64,000 nucleotides of DNA from Escherichia coli. GTDB taxonomy: Bacteria > Pseudomonadota > Gammaproteobacteria > Enterobacterales > Enterobacteriaceae. The DNA lies in NCBI RefSeq assembly GCF_013122565.1, contig NZ_CP053258.1. One strand, given 5' to 3'. The position numbers were made by a program, and so were the translations under genes. Below the pieces are notes generated by a model. The model was not told where the DNA came from. It saw only the letters and a program-made list of their open reading frames with translations, and made no database searches. This document shows positions 24,459-46,839 of the stretch, one piece after another; within the stretch, counting starts at the first letter, position 1, and every line of letters starts with the position of its first letter.

Positions 24459-26436
24459 GATGGTTTATCCGTAAGATCAACGGTGCGCAGGAAGAAATCC
24501 AGCGTTTCGTCGATGGTTTCCTGCATATCAATTTTCGGCTCCCAGTCCAGGCAGCGGTGGGCATTGCGGATGCTCGGTTTACGATGCTCTACGTCCTGAT
24601 ATCCTTTTCCGTAGTAGCTGCTACTTTCGACAACGCGAAAGCCCGCAAACGGTGGGAAATGATGGCGCAGCGGATGTTTTTCGAAGCTCGCCAGCAGCAT
24701 CTCGCCCAGTTCCTCAATGCTCGCTTCGTTCTCAGGATTGCCAATGTTGATAATTTCGCCGTCGCAGCGATTTCCCGCATTTTCGATAATGCGGTATAAC
24801 GCCTCGATACCATCGCGAATATCAGTAAAGCAGCGTTTTTGTTTTCCGCCATCAATCAGCTTAATCGGTGAACCTTCTACCAGATTGAGAATGAGTTGCG
24901 TAATCGCGCGGGAGCTGCCAATTCGCGCTGCATTAAGGTTATCCAGTCGTGGTCCCATCCAGTTAAACGGGCGGAAGAGGGTGAACTGTAAACCCTCTTT
25001 TTCGCCATAGGCCCAGATAACCCGATCAAGTAATTGTTTTGACACCGAATAAATCCAGCGTGGTTTATTCACCGGGCCGACGATTAAATTAGAATGGTCC
25101 TCATCGAAGTATTTATCGCTACACATCCCATAAACTTCTGAAGTTGATGGGAAGATGATTCGCTTACGGTACTTCACGCAGTAGCGGATAATGCGCAGAT
25201 TCTCTTCAAAATCGAGTTCAAATACGCGCAGCGGGTTGCGGGTATATTCAATCGGCGTGGCTATCGCCACCAGCGGCAAGACGACATCACATTTTTTGAC
25301 GTGATACTCAATCCATTCGGAATGAATACTGATATCGCCTTCGACAAAGTGAAAATGCGGATGATTCAGAAAACGGCTTATCGCATCGCTGCCAATATCC
25401 AGACCGTAAACTTCATAATGATCTTCGCGCAGCAGGCGTTCTGTCAGATGGTTGCCAATAAAGCCATTTACCCCGAGGATGAGTACCCGGGTACGGCGTC
25501 GGGCGGCACAGGCAGGCTGGCTATTCAAGCGTGAACCTTGCACCAGGCCCAGCGTCTGCGCTAATTGCGAGCCCTGCATAGTAATGCCGTCGCCCGCCTG
25601 TCCGGTGACGATTTCCAGCGCGCCATCGCCACAGGCAATCAGCAGTGGCGCAACAGAAATCACGCTCCCCGGCTGCGCTGCGGATGTATGAGGATGTACG
25701 CGTGACGACCAGACGGTGAATTTCTGATTGCCAGCATAGCTGAAGGCACCCGGCCACGGATCGGCAACGGCGCGGACCATGTTATGCAATACGGCTGCCG
25801 GTTTGTGCCACTCGAGGAAGCTATCTTCTGGTGCTCTGCGACCAAAACAGGTGGCTTCGTTCTCGCGTTGGGCGATTTCCAGAATATTAACGTGTTTAAT
25901 GGCGGGTAATGTCTGTTCCAGTAGCTGGCGCGCGGCATGGCACAATTTATGATGCAGCGTAATAGCGATATCGTCTGGCGCAATGGCAATGCGCAGTTGC
26001 GCCACAATGGCCCCGGCATCGGCACGTGTCACCATTCGGTGCAATGTAACGCCCGTTTCCGTTTCACCGTTCACCAGCACCCAGTTCAGCGGCGCGCGAC
26101 CACGATATTTTGGTAACAGCGAACCATGCAGATTAAATGCACCTGCGGGAGCGAGCTGCAAAATTTCGTCGCAAATAAGATGGCGATAATAAAAAGAGAA
26201 AATCACATCTGGCGACAGTTGGGCAATGCGTTCCACCCACAGCGGATGATTAACGTCATCCGGCGCATAAACCGGAATGCCTCTTTCCGCCGCCAGACGA
26301 GCCACCGAACCATAAAAGGCTTTTTCACCGGGATTATCGGTATGGGTAAAAATGGCGCTAATTTCGTAACCGGCAGCCAGCAGGGCTTCAATACCGAGGC
26401 ATCCCATATCGTGGTAGGCAAAAACGACGGTTTTCA

Positions 26437-26437
<1 letters not shown>
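24455..26437 (-). CDS. arnA: Bifunctional UDP-glucuronate decarboxylase / UDP-Ara4N formyltransferase
   Basis: 660 aa; N-terminal formyltransferase and C-terminal Rossmann dehydrogenase ([10 protein letters not shown]). Confidence 0.95.
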
Positions 26438-27408
<971 letters not shown>

Positions 27409-28566
27409 TTATTGTCCTGCGAGTTGCTGAAGGGCTGTGATGACACGGTCGGCATCGGCGGTGGTCATATCCGGGAACAGCGGCAAAGAACAGATGCGTT
27501 CGCTATTCCATTCGGTATTCGGTAACGACAGCGTGGGAAAACGCTCGCGATAATATTTTTGTGTGTGAGCGGCGCGGAAATGTAACCCGGTACCAATGCC
27601 TCTTTCTTTTAACGCTTCCATCAACGCATTTCGACTGATACCACAACGTTGTTCATCGACACGAATAATAAACAGATGCCAGGCGTGAACGTGCGGCCAG
27701 GCGGGAAGGCTTAATGGCTGAAAGGGGAGAGCTGCCAGTGCTTGCTGATATTGCAGGGCAATTTCGCGCCGACGGGTGTTGAGGTACTCTAATTTGGCTA
27801 ACTGTGTCATGGCAATCGCGGCGTTAATATCGGTCAGATTGTACTTATAGCCCGGCGTTAAGACTTCAGCCTGCGGTGCACGGCCCCAGGTTTGTCTGTC
27901 ATAGGCATCGACACCCAGACCGTGAAATTTCAACATCCGTAGCTGGCGGGCAAGATTTTCATTATCAGTAACAATCAGGCCACCTTCCGCACAGGTAATA
28001 TTTTTGATGGCGTGAAACGAAAAAATAGCGGTACCTTTTGCTCCAATATGTCGCCCTTTGTAATACGTACCGACGGCATGGGCTGCATCTTCGATAACTG
28101 CGATGCCGTAACGTTCGCCAAGGGCGCGAATGGCGTCAATATCTGCTGGCGCACCGGCATAATGCACCGGAATGATGGCTTTAGTGCGTGGCGTAATGGC
28201 TGACTCGATAGCTTCAGGCGTGACCATCAGCGTATCGCGGTCGACATCCACCATTACCGGCGTTGCACCCAACAAGGAGATCATATTGAGAGTTGAAACC
28301 CAGGTCAGGGAAGGCGTAATCACTTCATCACCCTTGCCAATTTCCAACGCCATTAGCGTGATATGCATTCCGGCGGTGGCTGAACTGACCGCGATGGCAT
28401 GCTGATTTCCCGTCAACTGGCAAAAGGCTTGCTCAAGCGCCTGATTCTTCGGACCGGTTGTGATCCAACCGGATTCGAGAACCTCTTTAACTGCAGCGAG
28501 TTCCTCCACGCCCATTGCTGGTCGCGAAAAAGGCAAAAATTCTGACATTGCTTTTCCTTCCGCCAT
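27409..28566 (-). CDS. arnB: UDP-4-amino-4-deoxy-L-arabinose aminotransferase (PLP-dependent)
   Basis: DegT/ArnB-type aminotransferase; start placed at ATG (MAEGKAM...), 5 codons inside the GTG-initiated track ORF; alternative start MSEFLPF. Confidence 0.9.
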
Positions 28567-28646
28567 TGAATACCTGTCCACTTATATTTGCTATAAAGAG
28601 TGTTGTGTATATTTTGCCATTTGGAGCGAAATTTTAAGGATAGAAT

Positions 28647-28663
28647 ATTAACTTAACCTTAAG
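28647..28663 (-). promoter_or_regulatory. PmrA (BasR) box upstream of arnB
   Basis: Minus strand reads CTTAAG-gttaa-GTTAAT (two YTTAAK half-sites, 5-bp spacer) about 80 bp upstream of the arnB ATG; matches the known PmrA-box architecture. Confidence 0.7.
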
Positions 28664-28855
28664 AAACTAATATTAGACGTAAATATTGAAATTTTTATAT
28701 TTTTTCTTATTTAGGCTTTGCATTTGGCAAAATTTTGAGGCATTTTGCCGACATCGTAGGATTTTTAATATTACACCAACTGCTAATTATCGCCAGAAAT
28801 GTCGCTCAATTTCACGGTAATTGTCTGGTTGCGCTTGTCTATAGGTGGAGTTTAC

Positions 28856-29458
28856 GTGTTAGCTTTTTGCCGCTCATCATTGAAGTCAAAAAAATATTTC
28901 ATCATTTTACTGGCGCTCGCTGCAATTGCCGGACTGGGTACTCATGCCGCCTGGAGTAGCAATGGTTTGCCACGTATCGACAATAAAACATTGGCCAGAC
29001 TGGCACAGCAGCACCCGGTTGTCGTTTTGTTTCGCCATGCTGAACGTTGCGATCGTTCAACTAATCAATGCTTGTCAGATAAAACAGGTATTACGGTCAA
29101 AGGTACCCAGGATGCCCGTGAACTGGGCAACGCTTTTAGTGCTGATATCCCTGATTTCGATCTTTATTCCAGTAATACCGTCCGGACCATTCAGTCGGCG
29201 ACATGGTTTTCAGCGGGTAAAAAGCTGACGGTAGATAAACGACTTCTTCAGTGCGGTAATGAGATTTATAGTGCAATTAAGGACTTACAAAGCAAAGCGC
29301 CTGATAAAAATATCGTTATTTTCACCCATAATCATTGCCTGACATATATTGCTAAAGATAAGCGTGATGCGACATTTAAACCCGATTATCTGGATGGTTT
29401 AGTCATGCATGTGGAAAAAGGCAAAGTTTATCTGGATGGGGAATTCGTTAATCAATAA
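28856..29458 (+). CDS. ais: Ais / PmrG-like periplasmic histidine-phosphatase-family protein
   Basis: 200 aa from GTG (VLAFCRSSL...) with RBS GGTGGAG; signal peptide; divergent from arnB. Confidence 0.8.
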
Positions 29459-29468
29459 ATTTTCAATC

Positions 29469-29490
29469 TGACAGCCAGTAATGGCTGTCA
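29469..29490. terminator. Perfect 9-bp inverted repeat between convergent ais and nudI
   Basis: TGACAGCCAgtaaTGGCTGTCA. Confidence 0.6.
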
Positions 29491-29496
29491 TCATTG

Positions 29497-29922
29497 TTAC
29501 AGAAGACCTTTCAAACGTAACGTTTTTCGGGTGGCGACATTCAAATCATAGTGCGCCAGATCTTCAGGTTTTACCCACGCGTAGTCCTGAAACTCTTCGT
29601 TTATTTTCACTTCTCGGTTGGCAGAAACGCAGTCAAAAATCAGGTAAATCATATAAATCTCTTCCTTGCGACCATCTGCATACGTCTTGGTGCGAATATC
29701 ATCGCTGAAGGTCCACGGCGTGATTTCTGTCAAAAGCAGCTGTTCTCCCAGTTCTTCGCGAATTTCGCGGCGTAGTGCCTCTTCAATTCGTTCGCCAGGC
29801 TCCACGCCGCCACCCGAAAGCGCCCATTGACCGGGGAAAACGCCGCGATCGTCGGCCATTTTACACAGCAAATAAGCACCATCATTTTGAATCAAAGGGC
29901 ATACAATAGTCCGTTGTCGCAC
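29497..29922 (-). CDS. nudI: Nudix hydrolase NudI (nucleoside triphosphatase)
   Basis: 141 aa from GTG ([10 protein letters not shown]...); Nudix box [23 protein letters not shown]. Confidence 0.85.
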
Positions 29923-30200
29923 AGGGGTATTCCTTATAAATAAAAAGAAACCATGAGAATACGGTAACTCAGAAATATGTGAAAGTGACAGTAATCTCTT
30001 TTGCGATGATAACTGCACTTATTATTATTTTTGTGTGTATCGGTAAAGTGTGTTTATTTTTTCGGCGTTTAATTATTTAAGAAGTATTTAGTTACAATAA
30101 GTGACTAGATCCCTTTTTTCGCTCATTGAATCCTCTGTGCCAGGCAGTACAATCCCGCAGCTTTGGGAATTTTGATTAATTGCTTGTGGGAAAGGGGATA

Positions 30201-30743
30201 ATGAAAAAAATTGCGCTAGCAGGTCTGGTCGGAATGCTGTTGGTTTCTGCATCGGTCAATGCAATGAGCATCAGCGGTCAGGCGGGTAAAGAATACACCA
30301 ATATTGGTGTCGGTTTTGGGACTGAATCGACGGGTCTGGCGTTAAGCGGTAACTGGACACATAACGACGACGACGGTGACGTCGCGGGCGTGGGGCTGGG
30401 GTTGAATCTGCCTCTCGGGCCGTTAATGGCGACCGTTGGCGGAAAAGGCGTTTACACCAACCCGAATTACGGCGATGAAGGTTATGCCGCAGCGGTAGGA
30501 GGTGGTTTGCAGTGGAAAATTGGCAACAGCTTCCGTTTGTTTGGCGAGTATTACTACTCTCCGGATTCGCTCTCCAGCGGTATTCAAAGTTATGAGGAAG
30601 CGAATGCTGGCGCGCGTTACACCATTATGCGTCCAGTCAGTATTGAGGCGGGTTATCGCTACCTGAATCTGTCGGGTAAAGACGGTAACCGCGACAACGC
30701 AGTGGCTGACGGCCCGTATGTTGGGGTTAACGCCAGTTTCTGA
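30201..30743 (+). CDS. yfaZ: Small outer-membrane beta-barrel protein YfaZ
   Basis: 180 aa from MKKIALAG...; signal peptide ending SVNA; Gly/aromatic-rich barrel-like sequence ending in F. Confidence 0.8.
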   Translation: MKKIALAGLVGMLLVSASVNAMSISGQAGKEYTNIGVGFGTESTGLALSGNWTHNDDDGDVAGVGLGLNLPLGPLMATVGGKGVYTNPNYGDEGYAAAVGGGLQWKIGNSFRLFGEYYYSPDSLSSGIQSYEEANAGARYTIMRPVSIEAGYRYLNLSGKDGNRDNAVADGPYVGVNASF

Positions 30744-30842
30744 TCCCTTCCGGCGCGGCATTCTGTCGCGCCATTCAGTTTCTTACTACGCCTTATCTCC
30801 CTTTGCGTTATAGTGATTCGATAACAAAAGCAGGAGATAACC

Positions 30843-32045
30843 ATGTTAAAAGTGGAAATGTTATCCACCGGGGATGAAGTGTTACACGGGCAAATCGTTG
30901 ACACTAACGCTGCCTGGCTGGCCGATTTTTTCTTTCATCAGGGGTTGCCTTTAACTCGCCGCAATACGGTGGGGGATAACCTTGATGACTTAGTCACCAT
31001 TCTTCGCGAACGTAGTCAGCACGCCGATGTGCTGATCGTTAACGGCGGGCTGGGGCCGACCAGTGATGATTTAAGCGCACTCGCCGCTGCGACAGCAAAA
31101 GGTGAAGGCCTGGTGTTGCATGAAGCCTGGCTCAAAGAGATGGAACGCTATTTCCACGAACGTGGACGAGTAATGGCACCGAGCAACCGTAAACAAGCGG
31201 AGCTGCCTGCCAGTGCTGAATTTATCAATAATCCGGTAGGCACCGCCTGTGGTTTTGCCGTGCAGCTTAATCGTTGCCTGATGTTCTTTACCCCCGGCGT
31301 ACCGTCAGAATTTAAGGTGATGGTCGAGCACGAAATCCTGCCGCGTCTGCGCGAACGTTTTTCTTTACCACAGCCGCCGGTTTGTCTGCGTTTAACTACC
31401 TTTGGTCGTTCGGAAAGCGATCTGGCACAAAGCCTGGACACTCTACAACTGCCGCCGGGCGTAACAATGGGCTATCGCTCTTCAATGCCGATCATCGAAC
31501 TGAAACTCACCGGACCGGCAAGCGAGCAACAGGCGATGGAAAAACTGTGGCTGGACGTTAAACGTGTTGCCGGACAGAGCGTGATTTTCGAAGGTACCGA
31601 AGGATTGCCCGCGCAGATCAGCCGCGAATTGCAAAACCGCCAGTTTAGCCTGACGTTGAGCGAGCAATTCACCGGTGGTTTATTGGCTTTGCAACTTTCT
31701 CGCGCAGGTGCGCCGCTGCTGGCTTGCGAAGTCGTACCATCGCAAGAAGAGACACTGGCACAAACCGCCCACTGGATTACAGAACGGCGAGCCAACCATT
31801 TTGCCGGGTTGGCGCTGGCTGTTTCGGGTTTCGAGAACGAGCATCTCAACTTTGCGCTAGCCACGCCAGATGGCACTTTCGCTCTGCGTGTGCGTTTCAG
31901 CACTACACGCTATAGCCTGGCTATCCGTCAGGAAGTGTGCGCAATGATGGCACTGAATATGCTGCGCCGTTGGTTAAACGGCCAGGACATCGCCAGTGAG
32001 CATGGCTGGATTGAGGTTGTTGAGTCCATGACCTTATCCGTCTGA
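30843..32045 (+). CDS. yfaY: CinA-like protein YfaY (MoCF-biosynthesis-like N-domain)
   Basis: 400-aa translation MLKVEMLSTGDEVLHGQIVDTNAAWLA... typical of the CinA N-terminal domain. Confidence 0.85.
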   Translation: MLKVEMLSTGDEVLHGQIVDTNAAWLADFFFHQGLPLTRRNTVGDNLDDLVTILRERSQHADVLIVNGGLGPTSDDLSALAAATAKGEGLVLHEAWLKEMERYFHERGRVMAPSNRKQAELPASAEFINNPVGTACGFAVQLNRCLMFFTPGVPSEFKVMVEHEILPRLRERFSLPQPPVCLRLTTFGRSESDLAQSLDTLQLPPGVTMGYRSSMPIIELKLTGPASEQQAMEKLWLDVKRVAGQSVIFEGTEGLPAQISRELQNRQFSLTLSEQFTGGLLALQLSRAGAPLLACEVVPSQEETLAQTAHWITERRANHFAGLALAVSGFENEHLNFALATPDGTFALRVRFSTTRYSLAIRQEVCAMMALNMLRRWLNGQDIASEHGWIEVVESMTLSV

Positions 32046-32056
32046 TTCCGCCACTC

Positions 32057-32081
32057 TGTGCCGGTTTACTGCACCGGCACA
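32057..32081 (+). terminator. Perfect 9-bp hairpin after yfaY
   Basis: TGTGCCGGTttactgcACCGGCACA, 12 nt after the yfaY stop; no strong T-run. Confidence 0.5.
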
Positions 32082-32264
32082 TTCCCCCTCCGGCAAAATT
32101 TGTCCAACCTGTTGTACTCAATAAGAAAAAATCCGTGCGCTGATTCACAAATTTGTGCGTAATTTCTCCAGTCCGTTGGACGAGGAGCGGGATTTGATGC
32201 GCTTCACAATTTTACTCCCCCTGAGCAACGAGACTGATTCCAGTATCTAAGACTGGAGTCCAGT

Positions 32265-33047
32265 ATGTTGGAATCAAGCAAAGTTCCCGCCCTGACACGG
32301 GCTATTGATATTCTCAATTTGATTGCCCGCATTGGCCCCTGTAATGCTGCGACGATCATTGACACATTGGGGATCCCTAAAAGCACGACCTATTTGCTGC
32401 TTAATGAACTCAGGCGTCAGCGTTTTCTTAGCCTTGATCACCAGGAAAATTTTTGTTTGTGGACCAGGCTGGTGGAGCTTTCCGGTCATGCGTTAAGCAA
32501 GATGGATCTCCGGGAACTGGCTCGACCGCGTTTGACGCAACTGATGGATACCACCGGGCTGTTATGTCACCTGGGGATTATTGATAACGGCAGCGCTTAT
32601 TACATTTTAAAAGTGGAGTCATCAGCCACTATCAGCGTGCGTTCCCATGAAGGAAAAAGCCTTTCGCTTTATCGCTCCGGAATAGGTAAATGCCTGCTTG
32701 CCTGGCAACCTGCAGCGGTACAGCAAAGTATTATCGAAGGGCTGGTCTGGGAGCAGACGACACCCACAACGATTACTCATCCACAGCAACTTCACGAAGA
32801 ACTGGCGCGTATTCGCCGTCAGGGCTGGAGCTATGACAACGGCGAAGATTACGCCGATGTCCGTTGTGTCGCTGCGCCGGTGTTTAACGCCAATAACGAG
32901 CTTACCGCTGCGATCTCGGTGGTCGGTACCCGCTTACAAATCAATGAAGAATACCGTGATTATCTGGCGGGCAAGGCCATTGCCTGCGCCAGGGATATTT
33001 CACGTCTGTTGGGATGGAAAAGTCCCTTTGACTTACAAGCCTCATAA
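32265..33047 (+). CDS. rhmR: IclR-family transcriptional regulator of L-rhamnonate utilisation
   Basis: 260 aa; N-terminal wHTH, C-terminal IclR effector domain; heads the rhm cluster. Confidence 0.85.
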
Positions 33048-33061
33048 CAATGGAGAACATC

Positions 33062-34267
33062 ATGACCCTACCAAAAATTAAACAGGTTCGCGCCTGGTTT
33101 ACTGGCGGTGCGACAGCAGAAAAAGGCGCTGGCGGCGGTGATTATCACGACCAGGGGGCGAATCACTGGATAGACGATCATATTGCCACCCCGATGAGTA
33201 AATACCGCGATTACGAGCAGTCACGCCAGTCATTTGGCATTAACGTTCTTGGCACGTTGGTTGTTGAAGTCGAAGCAGAAAACGGCCAGACCGGATTCGC
33301 TGTTTCGACAGCCGGTGAAATGGGCTGTTTTATCGTCGAAAAACACCTTAACCGTTTCATTGAGGGTAAATGTGTCAGTGATATCAAACTGATCCACGAT
33401 CAAATGCTCAATGCCACCCTGTATTACTCCGGCTCTGGTGGCCTGGTGATGAATACGATTTCCTGTGTCGATCTGGCTCTGTGGGATCTGTTCGGCAAAG
33501 TGGTTGGGCTTCCGATTTATAAACTTTTAGGCGGCGCTGTTCGTGATGAGATTCAGTTCTACGCCACAGGTGCGCGTCCGGATCTGGCAAAAGAGATGGG
33601 CTTTATCGGTGGCAAAATGCCGACGCACTGGGGGCCACATGATGGCGATGCGGGGATCCGCAAAGATGCCGCTATGGTCGCGGATATGCGTGAAAAATGC
33701 GGTGAGGATTTCTGGTTAATGCTCGACTGCTGGATGAGTCAGGACGTGAACTATGCCACCAAACTGGCCCACGCTTGCGCGCCCTATAACCTGAAATGGA
33801 TCGAAGAGTGCCTGCCGCCACAGCAGTATGAAGGTTATCGCGAACTGAAACGCAACGCCCCAGCGGGGATGATGGTCACCAGTGGTGAGCACCACGGCAC
33901 ACTGCAATCTTTTCGTACGCTTTCAGAAACCGGTATCGACATCATGCAGCCGGATGTTGGCTGGTGCGGTGGCTTAACCACGCTGGTGGAAATTGCCGCA
34001 ATCGCCAAATCCAGGGGGCAACTGGTGGTGCCGCACGGTTCGTCTGTTTACTCCCACCATGCGGTGATCACCTTCACCAATACGCCATTCAGTGAATTCC
34101 TGATGACCAGCCCGGATTGTTCAACGATGCGTCCGCAATTTGATCCGATTCTGCTTAATGAGCCGGTTCCGGTGAATGGTCGTATTCATAAATCAGTGCT
34201 TGATAAGCCCGGTTTCGGCGTCGAACTCAATCGTGACTGCAATTTGAAACGCCCCTACAGCCACTAA
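33062..34267 (+). CDS. rhmD: L-rhamnonate dehydratase (enolase superfamily)
   Basis: 401 aa from [12 protein letters not shown]... with RBS GGAG. Confidence 0.9.
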
Positions 34268-34323
34268 TCACTCCGGGCGTTGCTGTGAGAACGGTAATGC
34301 CCACATATTCTAAGGAGCTTTTT

Positions 34324-35613
34324 ATGAGCACCGCTTTGCTTGACGCCGTGGTGAAGAAAAACCGTGCGCGTTTAATTCCGTTTATGTTGGCGCTGTATGT
34401 GCTGGCGTTTCTCGACCGTTCGAATATTGGTTTTGCCAAACAGACCTACCAGATTGATACCGGGCTGAGTAATGAAGCTTATGCGCTGGGAGCAGGCATT
34501 TTCTTTGTGGTATACGCGTTTCTGGGGGTTCCGGCGAATCTTTTGATGCGAAAACTGGGGGCCAGAACCTGGATTGGTACGACAACACTGCTGTGGGGAT
34601 TTCTTTCGGCAGCCATGGCATGGGCCGATACTGAAGCGAAATTTCTGATTGTTCGCACTCTGCTTGGTGCTGCGGAGGCTGGGTTTTTCCCTGGTATGAT
34701 TTATCTCACCTCGCAATGGTTTCCGCAGAGTAATCGCGCCAGCATTATGGGGCTGTTCTATATGGGCGCACCGCTGGCGTTAACACTGGGATCACCGCTT
34801 TCTGGCGCGCTGCTGGAGATGCATGGATTTATGGGGCATCCCGGCTGGTTCTGGATGTTTGTGATTGAAGGATTGTTGGCAGTCGGCGCTGGGGTATTCA
34901 CATTCTTTTGGCTTGATGACACACCGGAGCAGGCACGTTTTCTGAGTAAACAAGAAAAAAAGTTGCTTATCAATCAACTGGCAAGTGAAGAACAACAGAA
35001 AGTGACTTCCCGAATGAGCGATGCGCTGCGTAATGGGCGAGTCTGGCAACTGGCGATTATCTACCTGACCATTCAGGTGGCGGTTTACGGATTAATTTTC
35101 TTCTTGCCGACCCAGGTTGCTGCATTGCTGGGGACAAAAGTGGGCTTTACGGCGTCGGTGGTCACCGCCATTCCGTGGGTTGCTGCCTTATTTGGGACCT
35201 GGCTTATTCCGCGCTATTCCGATAAAACCGGCGAACGGCGTAATGTCGCAGCGCTGACATTACTGGCGGCGGGCATTGGTATTGGTCTGTCCGGGCTGCT
35301 TTCTCCAGTAATGGCGATCGTAGCGCTGTGTGTTGCAGCCATCGGGTTTATTGCCGTGCAGCCGGTGTTCTGGACGATGCCGACACAACTGCTTTCCGGT
35401 ACGGCGCTGGCTGCGGGGATTGGTTTTGTAAACCTGTTTGGTGCAGTGGGCGGGTTTATTGCCCCGATCCTGCGCGTGAAAGCAGAAACGTTATTTGCCA
35501 GCGATGCGGCGGGATTACTGACGCTGGCAGCGGTGGCGGTCATCGGTTCGCTGATTATTTTCACTCTGCGTGTATATCGTACTGTTGCGCAGACCGATGT
35601 GGCACATCATTAA
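34324..35613 (+). CDS. rhmT: MFS L-rhamnonate transporter
   Basis: 429 aa from [10 protein letters not shown]... with RBS AAGGAG; 12-TM MFS. Confidence 0.87.
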
Positions 35614-35630
35614 ATAGGTTAAGGAACACG

Positions 35631-36434
35631 ATGAACGCATTATTAACCAATCCCTTTAAAGAACGTTTACGCAAGGGCGAAGTGCAAATTGGTCTGTGGT
35701 TAAGCTCAACAACTGCCTATATGGCAGAAATTGCCGCCACTTCCGGTTATGACTGGTTGCTGATTGACGGGGAGCACGCGCCAAACACCATTCAGGATCT
35801 TTATCACCAGCTACAGGCGGTAGCGCCCTATGCCAGCCAACCCGTGATCCGTCCGGTGGAAGGCAGTAAACCGCTGATTAAACAAGTCCTGGATATTGGC
35901 GCGCAAACTCTACTGATCCCGATGGTCGATACTGCCGATCAGGCACGTCAGGTGGTGTCTGCCACGCGCTATCCTCCCTACGGTGAGCGTGGTGTCGGGG
36001 CCAGTGTGGCACGGGCTGCGCGCTGGGGACGCATTGAGAATTACATGGCGCAAGTTAACGATTCACTTTGTCTGTTGGTGCAGGTGGAAAGTAAAACGGC
36101 ACTGGATAACCTGGACGAAATCCTCGACGTCGAAGGGATTGATGGCGTGTTTATTGGACCTGCGGATCTTTCTGCGTCGTTGGGCTACCCGGATAACGCC
36201 GGGCACCCGGAAGTGCAGCGAATTATTGAAACCAGTATTCGGCGGATCCGTGCTGCGGGTAAAGCGGCTGGTTTTCTGGCTGTGGCTCCTGATATGGCGC
36301 AGCAATGCCTGGCGTGGGGAGCGAACTTTGTCGCTGTTGGCGTTGACACGATGCTCTACAGCAATGCCCTGGATCAACGACTGGCGATGTTTAAATCAGG
36401 CAAAAATGGGCCACGCATAAAAGGTAGTTATTGA
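35631..36434 (+). CDS. rhmA: 2-keto-3-deoxy-L-rhamnonate aldolase (HpcH/HpaI family)
   Basis: 267 aa from [13 protein letters not shown]...; the longer track ORF (35328) is an out-of-context extension overlapping rhmT. Confidence 0.9.
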
Positions 36435-36440
36435 TATCAA

Positions 36441-36467
36441 AGGCCCATGGGGATCGGCTGTGGGCCT
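36441..36467. terminator. Hairpin between convergent rhmA and ypaA
   Basis: AGGCCCAtggggatcggctgTGGGCCT. Confidence 0.45.
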
Positions 36468-36474
36468 GTGTTAA

Positions 36475-36696
36475 TTAGTGGTTATTCGCTGCCAGATCGG
36501 CTTCGCTTAGCTGGGTGGCCGCGAGCACCAGGTCACGATCAATGCCCTGTTCCAGCATGCGCAAAGCAATTTTAATGGCTTGTTCATGCATACCTTCCTG
36601 CAAACCTTCTAATTTACCTTGCTGCAAACCTACTAATTTACCTTCTTGCCAGCCAATTTGATGTCCTTCCTGCCGTAGCCGTTCAGCAATAGTCAT
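36475..36696 (-). CDS. ypaA: Free-standing duplicate of the Rpn (YhgA-like) C-terminal tail domain, with expanded 8-aa repeats
   Basis: 73 aa from ATG ([51 protein letters not shown]...); AAGGAG RBS 8 nt upstream; near-identical to the YfaD C-terminus apart from a 48-nt insertion. Confidence 0.6.
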   Translation of the reverse strand: MTIAERLRQEGHQIGWQEGKLVGLQQGKLEGLQEGMHEQAIKIALRMLEQGIDRDLVLAATQLSEADLAANNH

Positions 36697-36708
36697 CAAT
36701 CTCTCCTT

Positions 36709-36879
36709 TTAATGACAGTTCGGAATATCAGCATCAGTGAGTTGGGTTGCCGCCAGCACAATCTCACGTTCAAAGCCCTGCTCCAGCATGCGCAAAGCAA
36801 TTTTAATGGCTTGTTCATGCATACCTTCCTGCCAGCCAATTTGATGTCCTTCCTGCCGTAGCCGTTCAGCAATAGTCAT
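36709..36879 (-). CDS. Putative intragenic small protein (in-frame C-terminal 56 aa of RpnE with its own RBS and ATG)
   Basis: Inside rpnE, AAGGAGAG is followed 4 nt later by an ATG ([11 protein letters not shown]...); the same RBS-ATG context is reproduced at ypaA. Confidence 0.45.
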
Positions 36880-37608
36880 CAATCTCTCCTTTTGTAGTGG
36901 TGAACGTTCGGCAATCTCCTCAATAAAACGGGTGAAACGGGAGGTATCGCCGCATTGCAGCAGATAATTAAACAGTGTTTGTAGCTGGCTGTCATTAGTG
37001 AAGCCTTTAACCAAAAGCGTGGTGATCCTGTCGACCATACCGATTAAATCGCGGTCGCGAATATGCTTTTGAATCAGTTCAAGCAGAGCTATACGCCGAT
37101 GTTGCATGATCTCATCGTCAGGTACGATGGTGATATCCACCAACGGAAAAGCTTCGGTGTACAACTGCCGGGCAAGTTGCGGATCGTCAAACTCATCCAG
37201 CCAGTTAAGTGAGTACGGGTAGGGCGAGGTTTCGCCATGATAAAACAGCAATGGCACCACCAGCGGAACTCTGTCATAGCCTTTATCCAGGTGACGCTGC
37301 ATGGCGGCAGTGGCATAGCGCATTAGCCGAAAAGCCATATTCTTTTCTGCAGAGCTTTGATGTTCAATCACGCAGTAGATATAACCGTCACCGTCGCTGG
37401 TTTCCACGGACCACAAAACATCCGAGTAGTAAGCGCGTAAACTTTTTTCAATAAAACTGGTGGGTTCCAGGCGTAAGGTTTGCAGGTTGCAAAGCTTGCG
37501 CAGCGGCTCTGGTAGATGTATTTCCAGAAAATCCCGTGCGGTTTCGGGTGTGAACATAAAGGTTTTAAACACCGCATCATGCGGGGAGGAGGTTGTTGAT
37601 TCGGTCAT
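36709..37608 (-). CDS. rpnE: Rpn-family (YhgA-like, transposase_31/PD-(D/E)xK) recombination-promoting nuclease
   Basis: 299 aa; N-terminal HDAVFK and ...[10 protein letters not shown]... motifs typical of YhgA-like nucleases; old name yfaD. Confidence 0.85.
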
Positions 37609-37759
37609 GGTTGTCCGTCACCTGATATTTATGATGACGCGACATTACGGTTATCCCAGGCCTTTGACATCTGCCAGTTTCAGCCTTTGCGAGACGTTTT
37701 CAGAGGAATTTTCACTGCGTTGCAACGCATACATTGGGCACGGAATCGTGTACGCAAAA

Positions 37760-37789
37760 ATGCCCGGTAACAACATGCTTACCGGGCAT
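37760..37789 (-). terminator. Rho-independent terminator of glpACB (perfect 11-bp stem, then U-run on the minus strand)
   Basis: ATGCCCGGTAAcaacatgcTTACCGGGCAT, flanked by an A5 run on plus. Confidence 0.7.
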
Positions 37790-37800
37790 CAGAAGGGAGT

Positions 37801-41865
<4,065 letters not shown>

Positions 41866-41917
41866 TGTTATCCCTCTGAAGTTCGTTTTTTACCATTTAG
41901 CCATAGTAAAAACATGA

Positions 41918-41995
41918 ATTGTTTGATTTCGCGCATATTCGCTCATAATTCGAAAATGAAACGTGATTTCATGCGTCATTTTGAACATTTTGTAA
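41918..41995. promoter_or_regulatory. glpACB/glpTQ divergent control region with helically phased TTCG/CGAA half-site-like repeats (putative tandem GlpR operators)
   Basis: tgatTTCGcgcatatTCGctcataaTTCGaaaatgaaacgtgatTTCAtg; assignment rests on known GlpR control of this region. Confidence 0.4.
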
Positions 41996-42008
41996 ATCTT
42001 ATTTAATA

Positions 42009-42030
42009 ATGTGTGCGGCAATTCACATTT
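42009..42030. promoter_or_regulatory. CRP binding site in the glpA-glpT intergenic region
   Basis: aatGTGTGCggcaatTCACAttt (TGTGN-N6-TCACA, one mismatch to consensus). Confidence 0.65.
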
Positions 42031-42137
42031 AATTTCTGAATGTTTTCTTAACATCGCGGCAACTCAAGAAACGGCTGGTTCTCCCACTGAATCAGGCTGT
42101 TAATCATAAATAAGACCACGGGCCACGGAGGCTTTCA

Positions 42138-43496
42138 ATGTTGAGTATTTTTAAACCGGCGCCACACAAAGCGCGCTTACCTGCTGCGGAGATCGATCCG
42201 ACTTATCGTCGATTGCGCTGGCAAATTTTCCTGGGGATATTCTTTGGCTATGCTGCTTACTATTTGGTTCGTAAGAACTTTGCGCTCGCTATGCCTTACC
42301 TGGTGGAGCAGGGATTCTCACGCGGTGATTTAGGTTTTGCGCTTTCTGGGATCTCGATCGCCTATGGATTTTCGAAATTCATCATGGGTTCGGTATCGGA
42401 TCGCTCGAATCCGCGCGTTTTCCTGCCCGCAGGTTTGATTCTGGCGGCGGCAGTGATGTTGTTTATGGGCTTTGTGCCATGGGCGACGTCGAGCATTGCG
42501 GTGATGTTTGTACTGTTGTTCCTCTGCGGCTGGTTCCAGGGAATGGGGTGGCCGCCGTGTGGTCGTACTATGGTGCACTGGTGGTCGCAGAAAGAACGTG
42601 GCGGCATTGTGTCAGTATGGAACTGTGCGCACAACGTCGGTGGTGGTATTCCGCCGCTGCTGTTCCTGCTGGGGATGGCCTGGTTCAATGACTGGCACGC
42701 GGCGCTCTATATGCCCGCTTTCTGCGCCATTCTGGTGGCACTATTCGCCTTTGCGATGATGCGCGATACCCCGCAATCCTGTGGTCTGCCGCCGATCGAA
42801 GAGTACAAAAATGATTATCCGGACGACTATAACGAAAAAGCGGAACAGGAGCTGACTGCGAAGCAAATCTTCATGCAGTACGTGCTGCCGAACAAATTGC
42901 TGTGGTACATCGCCATCGCCAACGTGTTCGTTTATCTGCTGCGTTACGGCATCCTCGACTGGTCACCAACTTATCTGAAAGAGGTTAAGCATTTCGCGCT
43001 GGATAAATCCTCCTGGGCCTACTTCCTTTATGAATATGCAGGAATTCCGGGCACCCTGCTGTGTGGATGGATGTCGGATAAAGTCTTCCGTGGCAACCGT
43101 GGGGCAACCGGCGTCTTCTTTATGACACTGGTGACCATCGCGACTATCGTTTACTGGATGAACCCAGCGGGCAATCCGAACGTCGATATGATTTGTATGA
43201 TTGTTATCGGCTTCCTGATTTACGGCCCTGTGATGCTGATCGGTCTGCATGCGCTGGAACTGGCACCGAAAAAAGCGGCAGGTACGGCAGCGGGCTTTAC
43301 CGGGCTGTTTGGTTACCTGGGCGGTTCGGTGGCGGCGAGCGCGATTGTTGGCTATACCGTGGACTTCTTTGGCTGGGATGGCGGCTTTATGGTAATGATT
43401 GGCGGCAGCATTCTGGCGGTTATCTTGTTGATTGTTGTGATGATTGGCGAAAAACGTCGCCATCAGGAATTACTGCAAAAACGCAACGGAGGCTAA
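42138..43496 (+). CDS. glpT: Glycerol-3-phosphate:phosphate antiporter (MFS)
   Basis: 452-aa MFS transporter; RBS GGAGG; synteny. Confidence 0.95.
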
Positions 43497-43500
43497 TGGC

Positions 43501-44577
43501 ATGAAATTGACGCTGAAAAACCTTAGCATGGCGATCATGATGAGTGGAATGATCATGGGAAGCAGTGCAATGGCGGCGGACAGCAACGAAAAAATAGTCA
43601 TCGCCCATCGCGGTGCCAGTGGATATTTGCCGGAGCATACGCTGCCAGCAAAAGCGATGGCGTATGCGCAGGGAGCGGATTATCTTGAACAGGATTTGGT
43701 GATGACCAAAGACGACCATCTGGTTGTTCTGCATGACCATTATCTCGATCGTGTTACTGATGTTGCCGATCGTTTCCCGGATCGGGCGCGCAAAGACGGT
43801 CGTTACTACGCGATAGATTTCACGCTGGATGAAATTAAGTCGCTGAAATTTACCGAAGGTTTCGATATTGAAAACGGTAAAAAAGTGCAGACTTATCCGG
43901 GGCGTTTCCCAATGGGTAAGTCCGACTTTCGGGTGCACACCTTTGAAGAAGAGATTGAATTTGTTCAGGGGTTAAATCACTCTACCGGGAAAAATATCGG
44001 TATCTATCCAGAAATCAAAGCGCCGTGGTTCCATCATCAGGAAGGGAAGGATATTGCGGCAAAAACGCTGGAAGTGCTGAAGAAATATGGTTACACCGGT
44101 AAGGACGATAAAGTTTATTTGCAATGTTTTGATGCTGATGAGCTGAAGCGTATTAAGAATGAGCTGGAACCTAAAATGGGCATGGATCTCAATCTGGTAC
44201 AGCTGATTGCCTATACCGACTGGAATGAAACGCAGCAGAAACAGCCGGATGGAAGCTGGGTTAATTACAACTACGACTGGATGTTTAATCCGGGTGCGAT
44301 GAAACAGGTGGCGGAATATGCTGATGGTATTGGTCCGGATTACCATATGTTGATTGAGGAGACATCGCAGCCGGGTAATATCAAACTCACTGGCATGGTG
44401 CAAGATGCTCAGCAGAATAAACTAGTAGTGCATCCTTATACCGTGCGGTCAGATAAACTGCCTGAATACACTACTGATGTGAATCAGTTATATGATGCTC
44501 TGTATAACAAAGCGGGTGTAAATGGGCTGTTTACTGATTTCCCTGACAAGGCAGTAAAATTTCTTAATAAAGAGTAA
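43501..44577 (+). CDS. glpQ: Periplasmic glycerophosphodiester phosphodiesterase
   Basis: 358 aa from MKLTLKNLSMAIMM... (signal peptide ...SSAMA/AD); GDPD catalytic motif HRGASGYLPEHT. Confidence 0.94.
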   Translation: MKLTLKNLSMAIMMSGMIMGSSAMAADSNEKIVIAHRGASGYLPEHTLPAKAMAYAQGADYLEQDLVMTKDDHLVVLHDHYLDRVTDVADRFPDRARKDGRYYAIDFTLDEIKSLKFTEGFDIENGKKVQTYPGRFPMGKSDFRVHTFEEEIEFVQGLNHSTGKNIGIYPEIKAPWFHHQEGKDIAAKTLEVLKKYGYTGKDDKVYLQCFDADELKRIKNELEPKMGMDLNLVQLIAYTDWNETQQKQPDGSWVNYNYDWMFNPGAMKQVAEYADGIGPDYHMLIEETSQPGNIKLTGMVQDAQQNKLVVHPYTVRSDKLPEYTTDVNQLYDALYNKAGVNGLFTDFPDKAVKFLNKE

Positions 44578-44585
44578 TGCTACTG

Positions 44586-44611
44586 CAGGATGGCGTTCAT
44601 GCGCCATCCTG
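44586..44611. terminator. Hairpin between convergent glpQ and the LysR regulator
   Basis: CAGGATGGCGttcatgCGCCATCCTG. Confidence 0.55.
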
Positions 44612-44618
44612 TCTCACA

Positions 44619-45497
44619 TCAAATTTTTCCACTCTCCACTAATTGTTCCGTGCACATTTGCAGTAAAAACAGTGGGCTGCCTTCTACCGGCTTTTCTTTA
44701 GCCAGCAACGAAATCTGTCGATAGAAGGTTGGTTCGAGAGGAACGGAACACAATTCACCTGCAATGGTTTTCAGAGTTAACTCTGGTAATAAGGCGATAC
44801 CTAATCCCTGTCGAATAAAACTGATCGCTGTATCCGGGTGATTAAATTCATATTTTATCTGCGGGGTAATATTCTTTTCTTTAAATAACGTCATAATGCT
44901 TAATTCATAGCGCCCTTTACTAATAATTAACGATTCACCCATTAGCTCTTCCACTGTAATAGTGCTGCTTTTTGCCAGAGCATGGTCGGGCGGTAACACT
45001 ACGGTGAATTTATCCTGATAAATGGGCACGGAGTACATTCCGCTTACCGGAAAATGAACAAAACCGGCATCAATGGATTCATTCTGAAGCGAATCAATAA
45101 TCGCTGTGCTATTTTCCTCAAAAGGAATAATTTTTATATTCGGATGATGAATTTCAAAGTAGCGAATCACAACCGGTAAGATACAGGCGCAGACGCTGGG
45201 GAAACAACCAAGTCGCAGCGTTCTTTGAGGGTTCTGCTTTTCCTGTTCGGCTATCTCTTTTACTGCGTTAACTTCCCGATTAATGGCGCGCAGATGATGC
45301 ACAATGCGGTGGCCTGCTGTGGTCAGTTGTATAGTTTTACGGCGATCGCGTAACAGTATATTCACGCCAAGTTCTTGTTCGAGGGCAGCAATTGCCTGGC
45401 TTACCGCCGACTGCGTCATGAACAATCGCTTGCTGGCTTCAGTAAAGCCACCGTAATCCAGCACGGCGAGTAAAGAATTTATTTGGGTAAGAGTCAT
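44619..45497 (-). CDS. yfaH: LysR-family transcriptional regulator (intact)
   Basis: 292 aa; N-terminal HTH (FTEASKRLFMTQSAVSQAIAALE) plus LysR substrate-binding domain; symbol from position (K-12 yfaH is a fragment). Confidence 0.75.
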   Translation of the reverse strand: MTLTQINSLLAVLDYGGFTEASKRLFMTQSAVSQAIAALEQELGVNILLRDRRKTIQLTTAGHRIVHHLRAINREVNAVKEIAEQEKQNPQRTLRLGCFPSVCACILPVVIRYFEIHHPNIKIIPFEENSTAIIDSLQNESIDAGFVHFPVSGMYSVPIYQDKFTVVLPPDHALAKSSTITVEELMGESLIISKGRYELSIMTLFKEKNITPQIKYEFNHPDTAISFIRQGLGIALLPELTLKTIAGELCSVPLEPTFYRQISLLAKEKPVEGSPLFLLQMCTEQLVESGKI

Positions 45498-45648
45498 TAG
45501 GGTGTACTAATCAATAATATTAAAACGATTAATTTCTCTAATAGCATGCCGCCATTTATACTTTTGTTCTGCAAAGTACATCACAATTTGACGCAACCGC
45601 AGTAACGGGAGTGTTGTCTGCGTGCGTCATCCTGATAGGCGGTAGGGT

Positions 45649-46839
45649 ATGAAAGAGAAGTTATGGACGAAGGATTTTTGGGCAATAACCATCATCAGCT
45701 TTATTATTTTCTTCGTCTTTTATGTTTTACTAACATTGTTGCCAATTTATATCTCTGACCGCTTACATGCCTCTCCTGATAAAGCCGGTTTGTTGGTGAC
45801 TTTATTTTTAATTGCCGCCATTGTTATTCGCCCCTTTGCCGGGCAATGGGTGGGTAAATATTCGAATAAAACTATTCTGGTGCTCTCTTCTCTGGCCTTT
45901 TTATTGGTCACAGCGTTGTATCCTTTTTGCCACTCAATTGAATCACTACTTTTTATTCGGGTGCTTCATGGTATTACCTTCGGGGTTATCACTACGGTAA
46001 AAGGAACGATTTCCGCGCGGCTGATCCCGGCCTCCCGACGTGGGGAGGGCATCAGTTTTTTCTCCCTGGCAATGGGGCTGGCAATGGTGGTCGGGCCGTG
46101 GATTGGTCTGAATATGGCGCGCTGGGAAGCCTTTAATCTGGCTTTCTGGCTATGCACGGGCGTGGCAGCGGTGGGGATTATCCTGTCGCTGATTATGACA
46201 GTGCCACCGGTTATCAGCCATGCTGATGGTTCAAAGCCGAAAGTGGGCTTCGCCGCCATGTTCGATCGCGCAGCGTTGCCATTTGCGATGGTCACCTTTT
46301 TTATGACCTTTTCGTATGCCGGGGTTTCTGCTTTTCTGGCGCTTTATGCTCGCGAACTTAACCTGATGTCGGCGGCCAGTAATTTCCTGCTTTGCTATGC
46401 CATCTTCCTGATGATCTGCCGTACCTTTACCGGCAATGTCTGCGACAAAAAAGGACCGAAATATGTGGTTTACCCTTGCCTTGTGTTCTTTACGGTAGGA
46501 CTGGTGGTTCTCGGCTACACCCAGGGAAGCATAATGATGGTTATTTCTGGCGCGTTGATTGGTATCGGGTATGGTTCTGTGACGCCAGTTTTTCAGACGC
46601 AGATTATCAGTTCAGTGGAGCCGCATAAAATCGGTGTCGCAAACTCTCTCTTCTTCAATGCGATGGATGCAGGCCTGGCGCTGGGAGCCTTTGTGATGGG
46701 GATGATGGTTGCACATACTGGCTATCGGATGATCTATCTGCTGGGCGCACTATTAGTGGTAGTGGCTGGTGGAGTCTATGCGCTGCAAATGAAGGGTAAA
46801 AGCCCTGTCGCGCTAGTAGTGGCAAAAGAAATTCATTAA
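45649..46839 (+). CDS. MFS transporter (12 TM), divergent from the LysR regulator
   Basis: 396-aa hydrophobic MFS-type translation; substrate not inferable. Confidence 0.8.
   Translation: MKEKLWTKDFWAITIISFIIFFVFYVLLTLLPIYISDRLHASPDKAGLLVTLFLIAAIVIRPFAGQWVGKYSNKTILVLSSLAFLLVTALYPFCHSIESLLFIRVLHGITFGVITTVKGTISARLIPASRRGEGISFFSLAMGLAMVVGPWIGLNMARWEAFNLAFWLCTGVAAVGIILSLIMTVPPVISHADGSKPKVGFAAMFDRAALPFAMVTFFMTFSYAGVSAFLALYARELNLMSAASNFLLCYAIFLMICRTFTGNVCDKKGPKYVVYPCLVFFTVGLVVLGYTQGSIMMVISGALIGIGYGSVTPVFQTQIISSVEPHKIGVANSLFFNAMDAGLALGAFVMGMMVAHTGYRMIYLLGALLVVVAGGVYALQMKGKSPVALVVAKEIH

Follow-up and report, generated by a model that had tools for sequence, protein, structure and literature searches.

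Why should a nuclease gene of Escherichia coli contain a second start site for its own tail, and why is the gene followed by a further, longer copy of that tail as a separate gene? These questions are raised by a locus on the minus strand of the window, as we call the whole 64,000-nt stretch of E. coli DNA analysed here. The gene rpnE (yfaD; 36709-37608, minus strand, open reading frame call of 299 aa) encodes the full-length protein RpnE_L including its C-terminal tail domain, and ypaA (also named rpnE_Ss; 36475-36696, minus strand, open reading frame call of 73 aa), whose stop codon ends at 36475, is a free-standing duplicate of that tail. The locus is located between glpC and yfaU/rhmA, in the same synteny as in K-12. 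Taken as a whole, it is very likely best explained as the published E. coli rpnE-ypaA locus, a gene-within-gene module of the toxin-antitoxin type belonging to the Rpn (YhgA-like) family. The system itself is already known, having been described in 2019 and 2023, and the window carries a new allele of it; the exact RpnE protein of the window was not found in the gene collection searched.

In-frame internal starts were detected in all E. coli rpn genes with retapamulin-arrested ribosomes (Ribo-RET) by Meydan 2019, where the likeness of the internal product of rpnE to the separate ypaA gene was also pointed out (10.1101/520783). Zhong 2023 (PNAS) described the RpnS tail proteins as intragenic antitoxins which bind and block the full-length RpnL nucleases, solved the crystal structure of RpnA-S and listed rpnE among five K-12 genes for which the small protein was detected (PMC10400941). 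Both RpnE_S and YpaA were seen in K-12, by immunoblots of SPA-tagged proteins and as Ribo-RET and Onc112 peaks, and ypaA was renamed rpnE_Ss as a gene derived from rpnE (PMC10400941). The preliminary description of this DNA had proposed that the internal start and ypaA give rise to separate small proteins, and for K-12 such translation is on record (PMC10400941, 10.1101/520783); the initiation profiling and the tagging that it suggested are likewise already published for K-12. The same study reported strain-to-strain differences in 4-residue repeats for every E. coli RpnS and RpnSs protein, noted that downstream RpnSs copies can disappear, either through deletion or by becoming fused to the N-terminal region of an rpn gene, and showed that RpnC is blocked by RpnS only when both have an equal number of tetrads, one extra tetrad being enough to abolish inhibition (PMC10400941). 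According to a commentary, partners that differ in repeat number do not form a complex (PMC10400984).

Read along the minus strand, the internal start of rpnE consists of the Shine-Dalgarno sequence AAGGAGAG (36884-36891, read from the sequence and running from 36891 to 36884), the spacer ATTG (36883-36880) and an ATG (36879-36877) which is in frame with rpnE. This ATG opens rpnE_S, an in-frame internal open reading frame (36709-36879, minus strand) for a tail protein of 56 aa. The preliminary description had claimed precisely this arrangement, with 4 nt between AAGGAGAG and the ATG and a product of 56 aa, and all of it is present on the minus strand, the one flaw being the end coordinate 36890 of the finding, which clips the first base of the internal Shine-Dalgarno (36891). 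The start of ypaA repeats the same order: the rpnE stop codon TAA (36711-36709) is directly abutted by a second AAGGAGAG (36701-36708, minus strand, again as read), followed by ATTG and by the ATG at 36696, which leaves a gap of 12 nt between stop and ATG. The claim that ypaA begins 12 nt past the rpnE stop in the same context of ribosome-binding site and ATG is hence correct, and the 23-nt start context is identical in both places; this sequence, AAGGAGAGATTGATGACTATTGC, is found exactly twice in the whole 64 kb, where shuffles give an expectation of 0.00. The reading frame is common to ypaA and rpnE (TAA AAG GAG AGA TTG ATG). Being a separate downstream open reading frame that is derived from the tail and has its own Shine-Dalgarno and ATG, ypaA has the features of a stand-alone RpnS copy.

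The duplication is visible as two direct repeats. The first, of 72 nt, spans the Shine-Dalgarno, the ATG and the first 19 codons, with its upstream copy at 36822-36893 and its downstream copy at 36639-36710, the two being 99% identical in a direct-repeat search. The second is a diverged repeat of 130 nt covering helices 2-3 and the C-terminus, in which 36496-36625 is 81% identical to 36727-36856. The first 19 codons of rpnE_S and ypaA, which had been called identical in their DNA, are so for all but one nucleotide (56/57 nt), the single difference being synonymous (CAG vs CAA in codon 17), and an equally good alignment which shifts the insertion in ypaA leaves zero mismatches in this start region. 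The last ~21 codons of ypaA and the rpnE tail have diverged, close to the ~20 codons that had been noticed. At the protein level, 47/56 aligned residues are common to RpnE_S and YpaA.

Between these two parts, ypaA contains an insertion of 48 nt relative to the rpnE tail. The tetrad-repeat region of RpnE (36823-36846, minus strand, by codon layout) reads HQIG WQEG, two tetrads with zero extra units, and the array of YpaA (36592-36663, minus strand, by Tandem Repeats Finder and codon layout) comprises six tetrads, four more than in RpnE. Tandem Repeats Finder reports at 36591-36649 a period of 24 with 2.5 copies and 88% matches. The units of 8 aa are, as the codon layout has it, pairs of 4-aa (xxxG) units, and because the array alternates two types of tetrad, the ypaA allele of the window looks as if it were built from 24-nt repeats. 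The insertion of 48 nt had thus been described correctly, and the unit that varies between strains is 12 nt or 4 aa, not 24 nt.

Downstream of ypaA, a G+C-rich hairpin at 36441-36467, found by consensus scan only, lies between the convergent yfaU (rhmA) and ypaA genes and is likely the shared terminator of both. The module is also bracketed by a 13-nt inverted repeat (36433-36445 and 37659-37671) with 12/13 bases matching; this repeat is conserved across other E. coli, five loci having it without a mismatch. A scan of 36380-37850 for the sigma-70 consensus returned 0 sites against 1.7 expected, with none inside or upstream of rpnE, and the evidence for an internal rpnE transcript comes solely from cited dRNA-seq data. 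No relevant RNA element was found by an Rfam scan of 34000-40000, the sole match being a chance microRNA (E = 0.59), and PADLOC v2 has no model matching RpnE or YpaA.

The preliminary description had placed the protein in the Rpn/YhgA family of PD-(D/E)xK nucleases, and profile searches bear this out. Residues 8-209 of RpnE (36982-37587, minus strand) match Pfam PF04754 (Transposase_31, YhgA-like) with E = 4.7e-88, and the protein scores 698.8 bits with the NCBIfam equivalog NF007418, where the cut-off is 583 bits, and 175.9 bits with TIGR01784. Residues D11, D63, E82, Q84 and R94 and the PDDE motif, which Kingston et al. reported to be needed for RpnA activity (PMC5350276), are present in RpnE at the RpnA-numbered positions, as judged by position and local motif and not by an explicit alignment to RpnA. 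YpaA aligns to positions 244-308 of the NF007418 profile and RpnE_S likewise to its last ~65 positions. A search of the installed Pfam-A reported no family for the tail; PF27070 (HTH_Rpn_C) was seen only in precomputed annotations, in which it matches the exact YpaA protein of the window and is also carried by RpnE_S.

An AlphaFold model of YpaA was built from an alignment of ten allelic tails. Its confidence is moderate, with a mean pLDDT of 75.6 and values of 63-67 across the repeats. The model predicts helices at residues 3-49, 54-61 and 65-70, and the length of the first (47 residues) reflects the six tetrads. A three-helix tail with a long first helix is thereby predicted for YpaA, on which it was judged, and RpnE_S has the same flanking sequence. 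The top Foldseek match of the model is E. coli RpnA-S (PDB 7TH0), with probability 1.00 and a TM score of 0.74 normalised to the target, and a sequence search of the PDB matches YpaA residues 33-71 to the same entry (E = 7.7e-4). The top PDB matches by sequence were designer pentatricopeptide-repeat proteins; their scores add up many weak matches to single repeats, whose individual E-values run into the hundreds, and they were rejected as spurious.

We compared the locus across E. coli. Of 5426 complete E. coli genomes, 5420 carry it, in every case on the chromosome and at the same site between glpC and yfaU. The best-matching complete E. coli genome shares 98.3% identity with the window across the locus and 97.8% across 20 kb. 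Repeat numbers were read in 88 E. coli loci, 21 of which were sampled evenly down the identity ranking and 67 reached by exact-protein look-ups. In these 88 loci the repeat number changes in steps of one tetrad (12 nt), with 0, 1, 2, 3, 5, 6 or 8 extra tetrads in rpnE and 0, 1, 2, 4 or 6 in ypaA, and the arrays alternate K-[LIV]-[EV]-G and [LW]-Q-[EQK]-G units. A comparison of repeat number across E. coli genomes had been suggested beforehand, and it shows that the number in ypaA does vary between strains, from 0 to 6 extra tetrads. The internal Shine-Dalgarno and ATG are conserved in all sampled E. coli loci.

The repeats of the two copies do not change in step. Repeat numbers of rpnE and ypaA are unequal in 15/16 distinct combinations, for example 0/4 extra tetrads (rpnE/ypaA) in the window, 0/1 in MG1655 and 8/6 in ST131; the sole equal pair is found in one locus (L070), with two extra tetrads in both copies (2/2). 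An obligate mismatch, in which selection would act against matching copies, held for the first 14 combinations and was refuted by L070. Among those 14, only ~0.6 equal pairs were expected by chance, so that the sample had no power on this point. The unequal numbers fit a random association of the two copies and give no evidence that matching is avoided; inequality is not obligatory. The 4-residue repeats in rpnE and in ypaA expand and contract independently.

Not all strains retain two copies. Among 60 evenly spaced E. coli genomes, classified by sequence in 21 and by span length and annotation in the others, 34 carry two copies and 25 (~42%) just one gene, while in the remaining one IS2 interrupts the locus. 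Every single-copy gene that was read (BL21, O157:H7 and three others) ends in the ypaA-type sequence ...DRD[QL]VLAATQLSEADLAANNH, which indicates that these genes are fusions and not an ancestral rpnE. When the N-terminal region of rpnE is placed on a neighbour-joining tree, the five fused loci occupy five separate positions, every one of them adjacent to two-copy relatives, and the tails of the fused genes match those of these neighbours. The fused tail of O157 is identical to YpaA of strain L26. In the fused tail of SW4848, an rpnE-type repeat array is followed by a ypaA-type end, which puts its crossover downstream of the repeats. The scattered positions of the fused loci, their matching tails and their differing crossover points together argue that fusion by unequal recombination has happened several times. 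The view that the 24-bp repeats and the direct repeat of ~180 bp are substrates for slippage or recombination is well supported by these data, as repeat numbers vary and fused genes arose repeatedly.

Where both copies are kept, ypaA appears to be under constraint. No frameshift or premature stop was seen in ypaA of the readable two-copy loci, and the Shine-Dalgarno and ATG are always kept. Over the last 38 codons pN/pS is ~0.3 for the ypaA type vs 0.38 for the rpnE type, values that come from only 12 and 7 polymorphic sites. From these sequence comparisons, small as the counts are, ypaA does not look like a decaying relic.

Together with the published work, these observations suggest how the locus may function. 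RpnE_L consists of a PD-(D/E)xK nuclease and, attached to it, a small helical domain as the tail, and ribosomes, as seen in K-12, also start at the internal Shine-Dalgarno and ATG and produce the tail alone, RpnE_S, of 56 aa. By analogy with RpnA, RpnB and RpnC, RpnE_S would pair with the identical tail of RpnE_L via the long first helix and keep the nuclease off. ypaA is an in-frame tandem duplicate of the segment from Shine-Dalgarno to stop codon, and since its Shine-Dalgarno abuts the stop codon common to RpnE_L and RpnE_S, we infer that it is co-transcribed and translationally coupled. The two copies recombine: an unequal crossover between them deletes the rpnE-type tail and fuses the nuclease domain to the ypaA-type tail, and such a fusion would change toxin and antitoxin together.

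The toxin-antidote model is an extrapolation for the RpnE paralogue, though its proposed catalytic residues are intact. Toxicity of RpnE, which the preliminary description had presumed, is not what Kingston et al. 2017 observed in their assays of recombination, viability and SOS: overexpression of RpnA-D led to more recombination, to the death of recA cells and to an SOS response, and it is for these four that toxicity is reported, whereas K-12 RpnE was inactive and had none of these effects (PMC5350276). The RpnE overexpression construct of that study retained the internal start (PMC5350276).

What YpaA would do in such a module depends on its first helix, which in the window is predicted to be 16 residues longer than that of RpnE (six tetrads vs two). 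By the rule published for RpnC, this difference makes YpaA probably a non-cognate inhibitor for the adjacent RpnE_L. The rule of equal numbers has been shown only for RpnC with one added tetrad, and its extension to YpaA is conditional; should the RpnC rule apply, YpaA would not provide another dose of the same antidote, since nearly all strains have a difference in helix-1 length between YpaA and RpnE. The two-copy antidote that had been proposed from the first reading of this DNA stands in so far as two tail proteins are translated in K-12, and is doubtful in that two against six tetrads would break the published matching rule. YpaA may instead be a duplicate that is neutral though still under constraint, may pair with something else or may donate alternative tails.

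The last of these roles can be worded more specifically. It is conceivable, though we would not expect it on present data, that ypaA is a stored alternative tail cassette and not a spare antidote dose, with the switching either selected or merely incidental. Recombination or gene conversion between the rpnE tail and the usually mismatched ypaA would then exchange helix length together with the last two helices in both partners at once, as a single tail sequence is common to toxin and antitoxin. Such a swap would reset the pairing specificity, much like cassette switching in type I restriction specificity genes. A cassette function would fit the common fused alleles with their differing crossovers, the 15/16 unequal combinations and the polymorphisms found across the copies. 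Concerning the latter, every one of the four possible pairings of the F/I site after EQG and the Q/L site is seen, both polymorphisms being common to the two copies. At the rpnE site, few of the sampled loci have the G three bases ahead of the ATG, which in the window makes both start contexts identical.

Could YpaA nevertheless be a second working dose of antidote, binding RpnE_L as RpnE_S does, with changes in repeat number serving to tune dosage? The identical start context and first 19 residues, the similarity of helices 2-3 and the production of both RpnE_S and YpaA in K-12 (PMC10400941) speak for it, as do the position of ypaA 12 nt past the common stop, by which its expression would probably follow that of RpnE_S, and the existence of the equal-repeat locus L070. 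We nonetheless judge it unlikely: repeat numbers differ in all the other combinations, with two against six tetrads in the window itself, a single extra tetrad abolished the inhibition of RpnC (PMC10400941) and a mismatch prevents the complex (PMC10400984), ~42% of the sampled genomes live without the second copy, and K-12 RpnE is non-toxic in published assays (PMC5350276).

An equally doubtful proposal is that ypaA is a functionless leftover of the tandem duplication, translated by virtue of its copied Shine-Dalgarno and ATG and heading for loss. It would explain why the NCBI pipeline labels ypaA as an incomplete pseudogene in many genomes and why fusion has removed ypaA from ~42% of those sampled, and it is in keeping with the inactivity of K-12 RpnE in assays (PMC5350276). 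The intact reading frames and start sites of ypaA in the readable two-copy loci argue against it, and so does a pN/pS close to that of the rpnE tail, within the small numbers of polymorphic sites given above. Moreover, the ypaA-type tail becomes the C-terminus of the full-length protein after fusion and so encodes a usable domain.

Finally, the locus is most improbably a mobile element encoding a transposase, as the product name 'ISNCY family transposase' that RefSeq and NCBIfam give it and the inverted repeat bracketing the module might suggest, for it occupies one fixed chromosomal site in nearly all complete E. coli genomes, has the fold of a PD-(D/E)xK nuclease and not of a known autonomous transposase, belongs to a group of genes for which Zhong 2023 report no terminal repeats or target duplications (PMC10400941), and carries an inverted repeat of a kind (12/13 bases within 1.3 kb) that is expected, by our estimate, ~0.5 times by chance.

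What matters here is the general principle, an antitoxin encoded inside the gene of its toxin with a hypervariable repeat determining which partners pair; it entered the literature in 2019-2023, where rpnE-ypaA figures among the examples. Added here are the variable unit of 12 nt, the fused single genes in ~42% of the sampled genomes and the 15/16 unequal combinations. The mostly unequal repeats and the frequent independent fusions sharpen, without settling, two questions, namely whether RpnE_L is a toxin and whether a mismatched YpaA acts on it.

Compared with the known RpnL/RpnS systems (rpnA, rpnB, rpnC and rpnP2), the locus of the window has the same N-terminal PF04754 nuclease and C-terminal three-helix tail, the same in-frame internal Shine-Dalgarno and ATG producing the tail alone and the same kind of hypervariable 4-residue repeats in the first helix. 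It differs in that toxicity, SOS induction, nuclease inhibition and phage defence have been reported for paralogues other than RpnE, with phage protection shown only for the plasmid-borne RpnP2 (PMC10400941). The tail resembles RpnA-S (PDB 7TH0), a bundle of three helices in which the long first helix mediates dimerisation, and is distinguished from it by the ~47 residues predicted for the first helix of YpaA. Closest of all is ypaA (rpnE_Ss) of K-12, and rpnC_Ss is a further case of this kind; the K-12 gene is the counterpart of the window's ypaA at an unchanged position, has its Shine-Dalgarno and ATG and likewise comes from the tail of the adjacent rpnE, but in MG1655 it encodes 61 aa with one extra tetrad as compared to 73 aa with four extra in the window. 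Outside the family, the TAEL repeats of the EcoR124I/EcoR124II specificity subunit, cited in Zhong 2023, offer a parallel in which the copy number of a 4-residue unit in a helix alters the specificity of an interaction. There the copy number sets the spacing of DNA recognition, whereas the Rpn tetrads are thought to set protein-protein pairing, and the parallel is one of resemblance only, with no homology.

The entire module formed by rpnE (yfaD; window 36709-37608, minus strand) and ypaA (36475-36696, minus strand), the downstream duplicate of the rpnE tail, is flanked by a 13-nt inverted repeat, GATATCAAAGGCC / GGCCTTTGACATC, whose arms match at 12 of 13 bases. One arm (36433-36445) is located at the stop and likely terminator of the convergent gene yfaU, and the other (37659-37671) precedes the start of rpnE by ~50 nt. 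This repeat is conserved in 65 of the 67 other E. coli loci checked, five of which carry it in the perfect form (13/13). By our own estimate, ~0.5 such inverted repeats are expected by chance per 1.3 kb. Published work describes rpn genes as being without terminal repeats (Zhong 2023, PMC10400941).

The in-frame internal ATG of rpnE (36879), from which the 56-aa tail protein rpnE_S would start, is preceded in the window by ATTG (36880-36883, minus strand). Each of the 20 E. coli loci in the initial sample contains ATTA rather than ATTG at this position, and just two of those sampled later have ATTG, a spacer found elsewhere mainly at the ypaA site. It is because of this ATTG that the start contexts of rpnE and ypaA in the window are identical over 23 nt. 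The spacer could be the result of a gene-conversion tract running from ypaA into rpnE, or of a single synonymous change.

The rpnE internal product and YpaA have earlier been described as 98% identical (Meydan et al. 2019 preprint, 10.1101/520783). Alignment of the MG1655 sequences of rpnE_S and YpaA gave 46 identical residues over 61 aligned positions (75%).

The RefSeq names of both genes trail the literature. Among the 20 sampled loci L001-L020, the RpnE product is named 'ISNCY family transposase' and ypaA is in most genomes listed as an incomplete pseudogene despite its intact ORF; contrary to this label, YpaA protein has been detected.

Comparison with 5,426 complete E. coli genomes showed that the closest is only 97.8% identical over the 20 kb of window 26000-46000, and at the rpnE locus the closest is 98.3% identical. 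The exact RpnE protein of the window was not found in the gene collection searched. The DNA comes from a lineage with sparse representation in the set of complete E. coli genomes, or from a close relative.

Disrupted forms of rpnE are present in two other genomes. In E. coli UTME-10 (locus L021, 261-2133), rpnE is interrupted near its 3' end by an IS2 copy and is annotated as missing its C-terminus, with a tail fragment located on the far side of the insertion. In GCA_014105675.1 (locus L036, 1-1500), rpnE is reduced to its last 124 nt, upstream of an intact ypaA, and the remainder is replaced by DNA coding for a large primase-type protein (Zn-ribbon/Toprim/D5_N), as is likewise carried by P4-like integrating elements.
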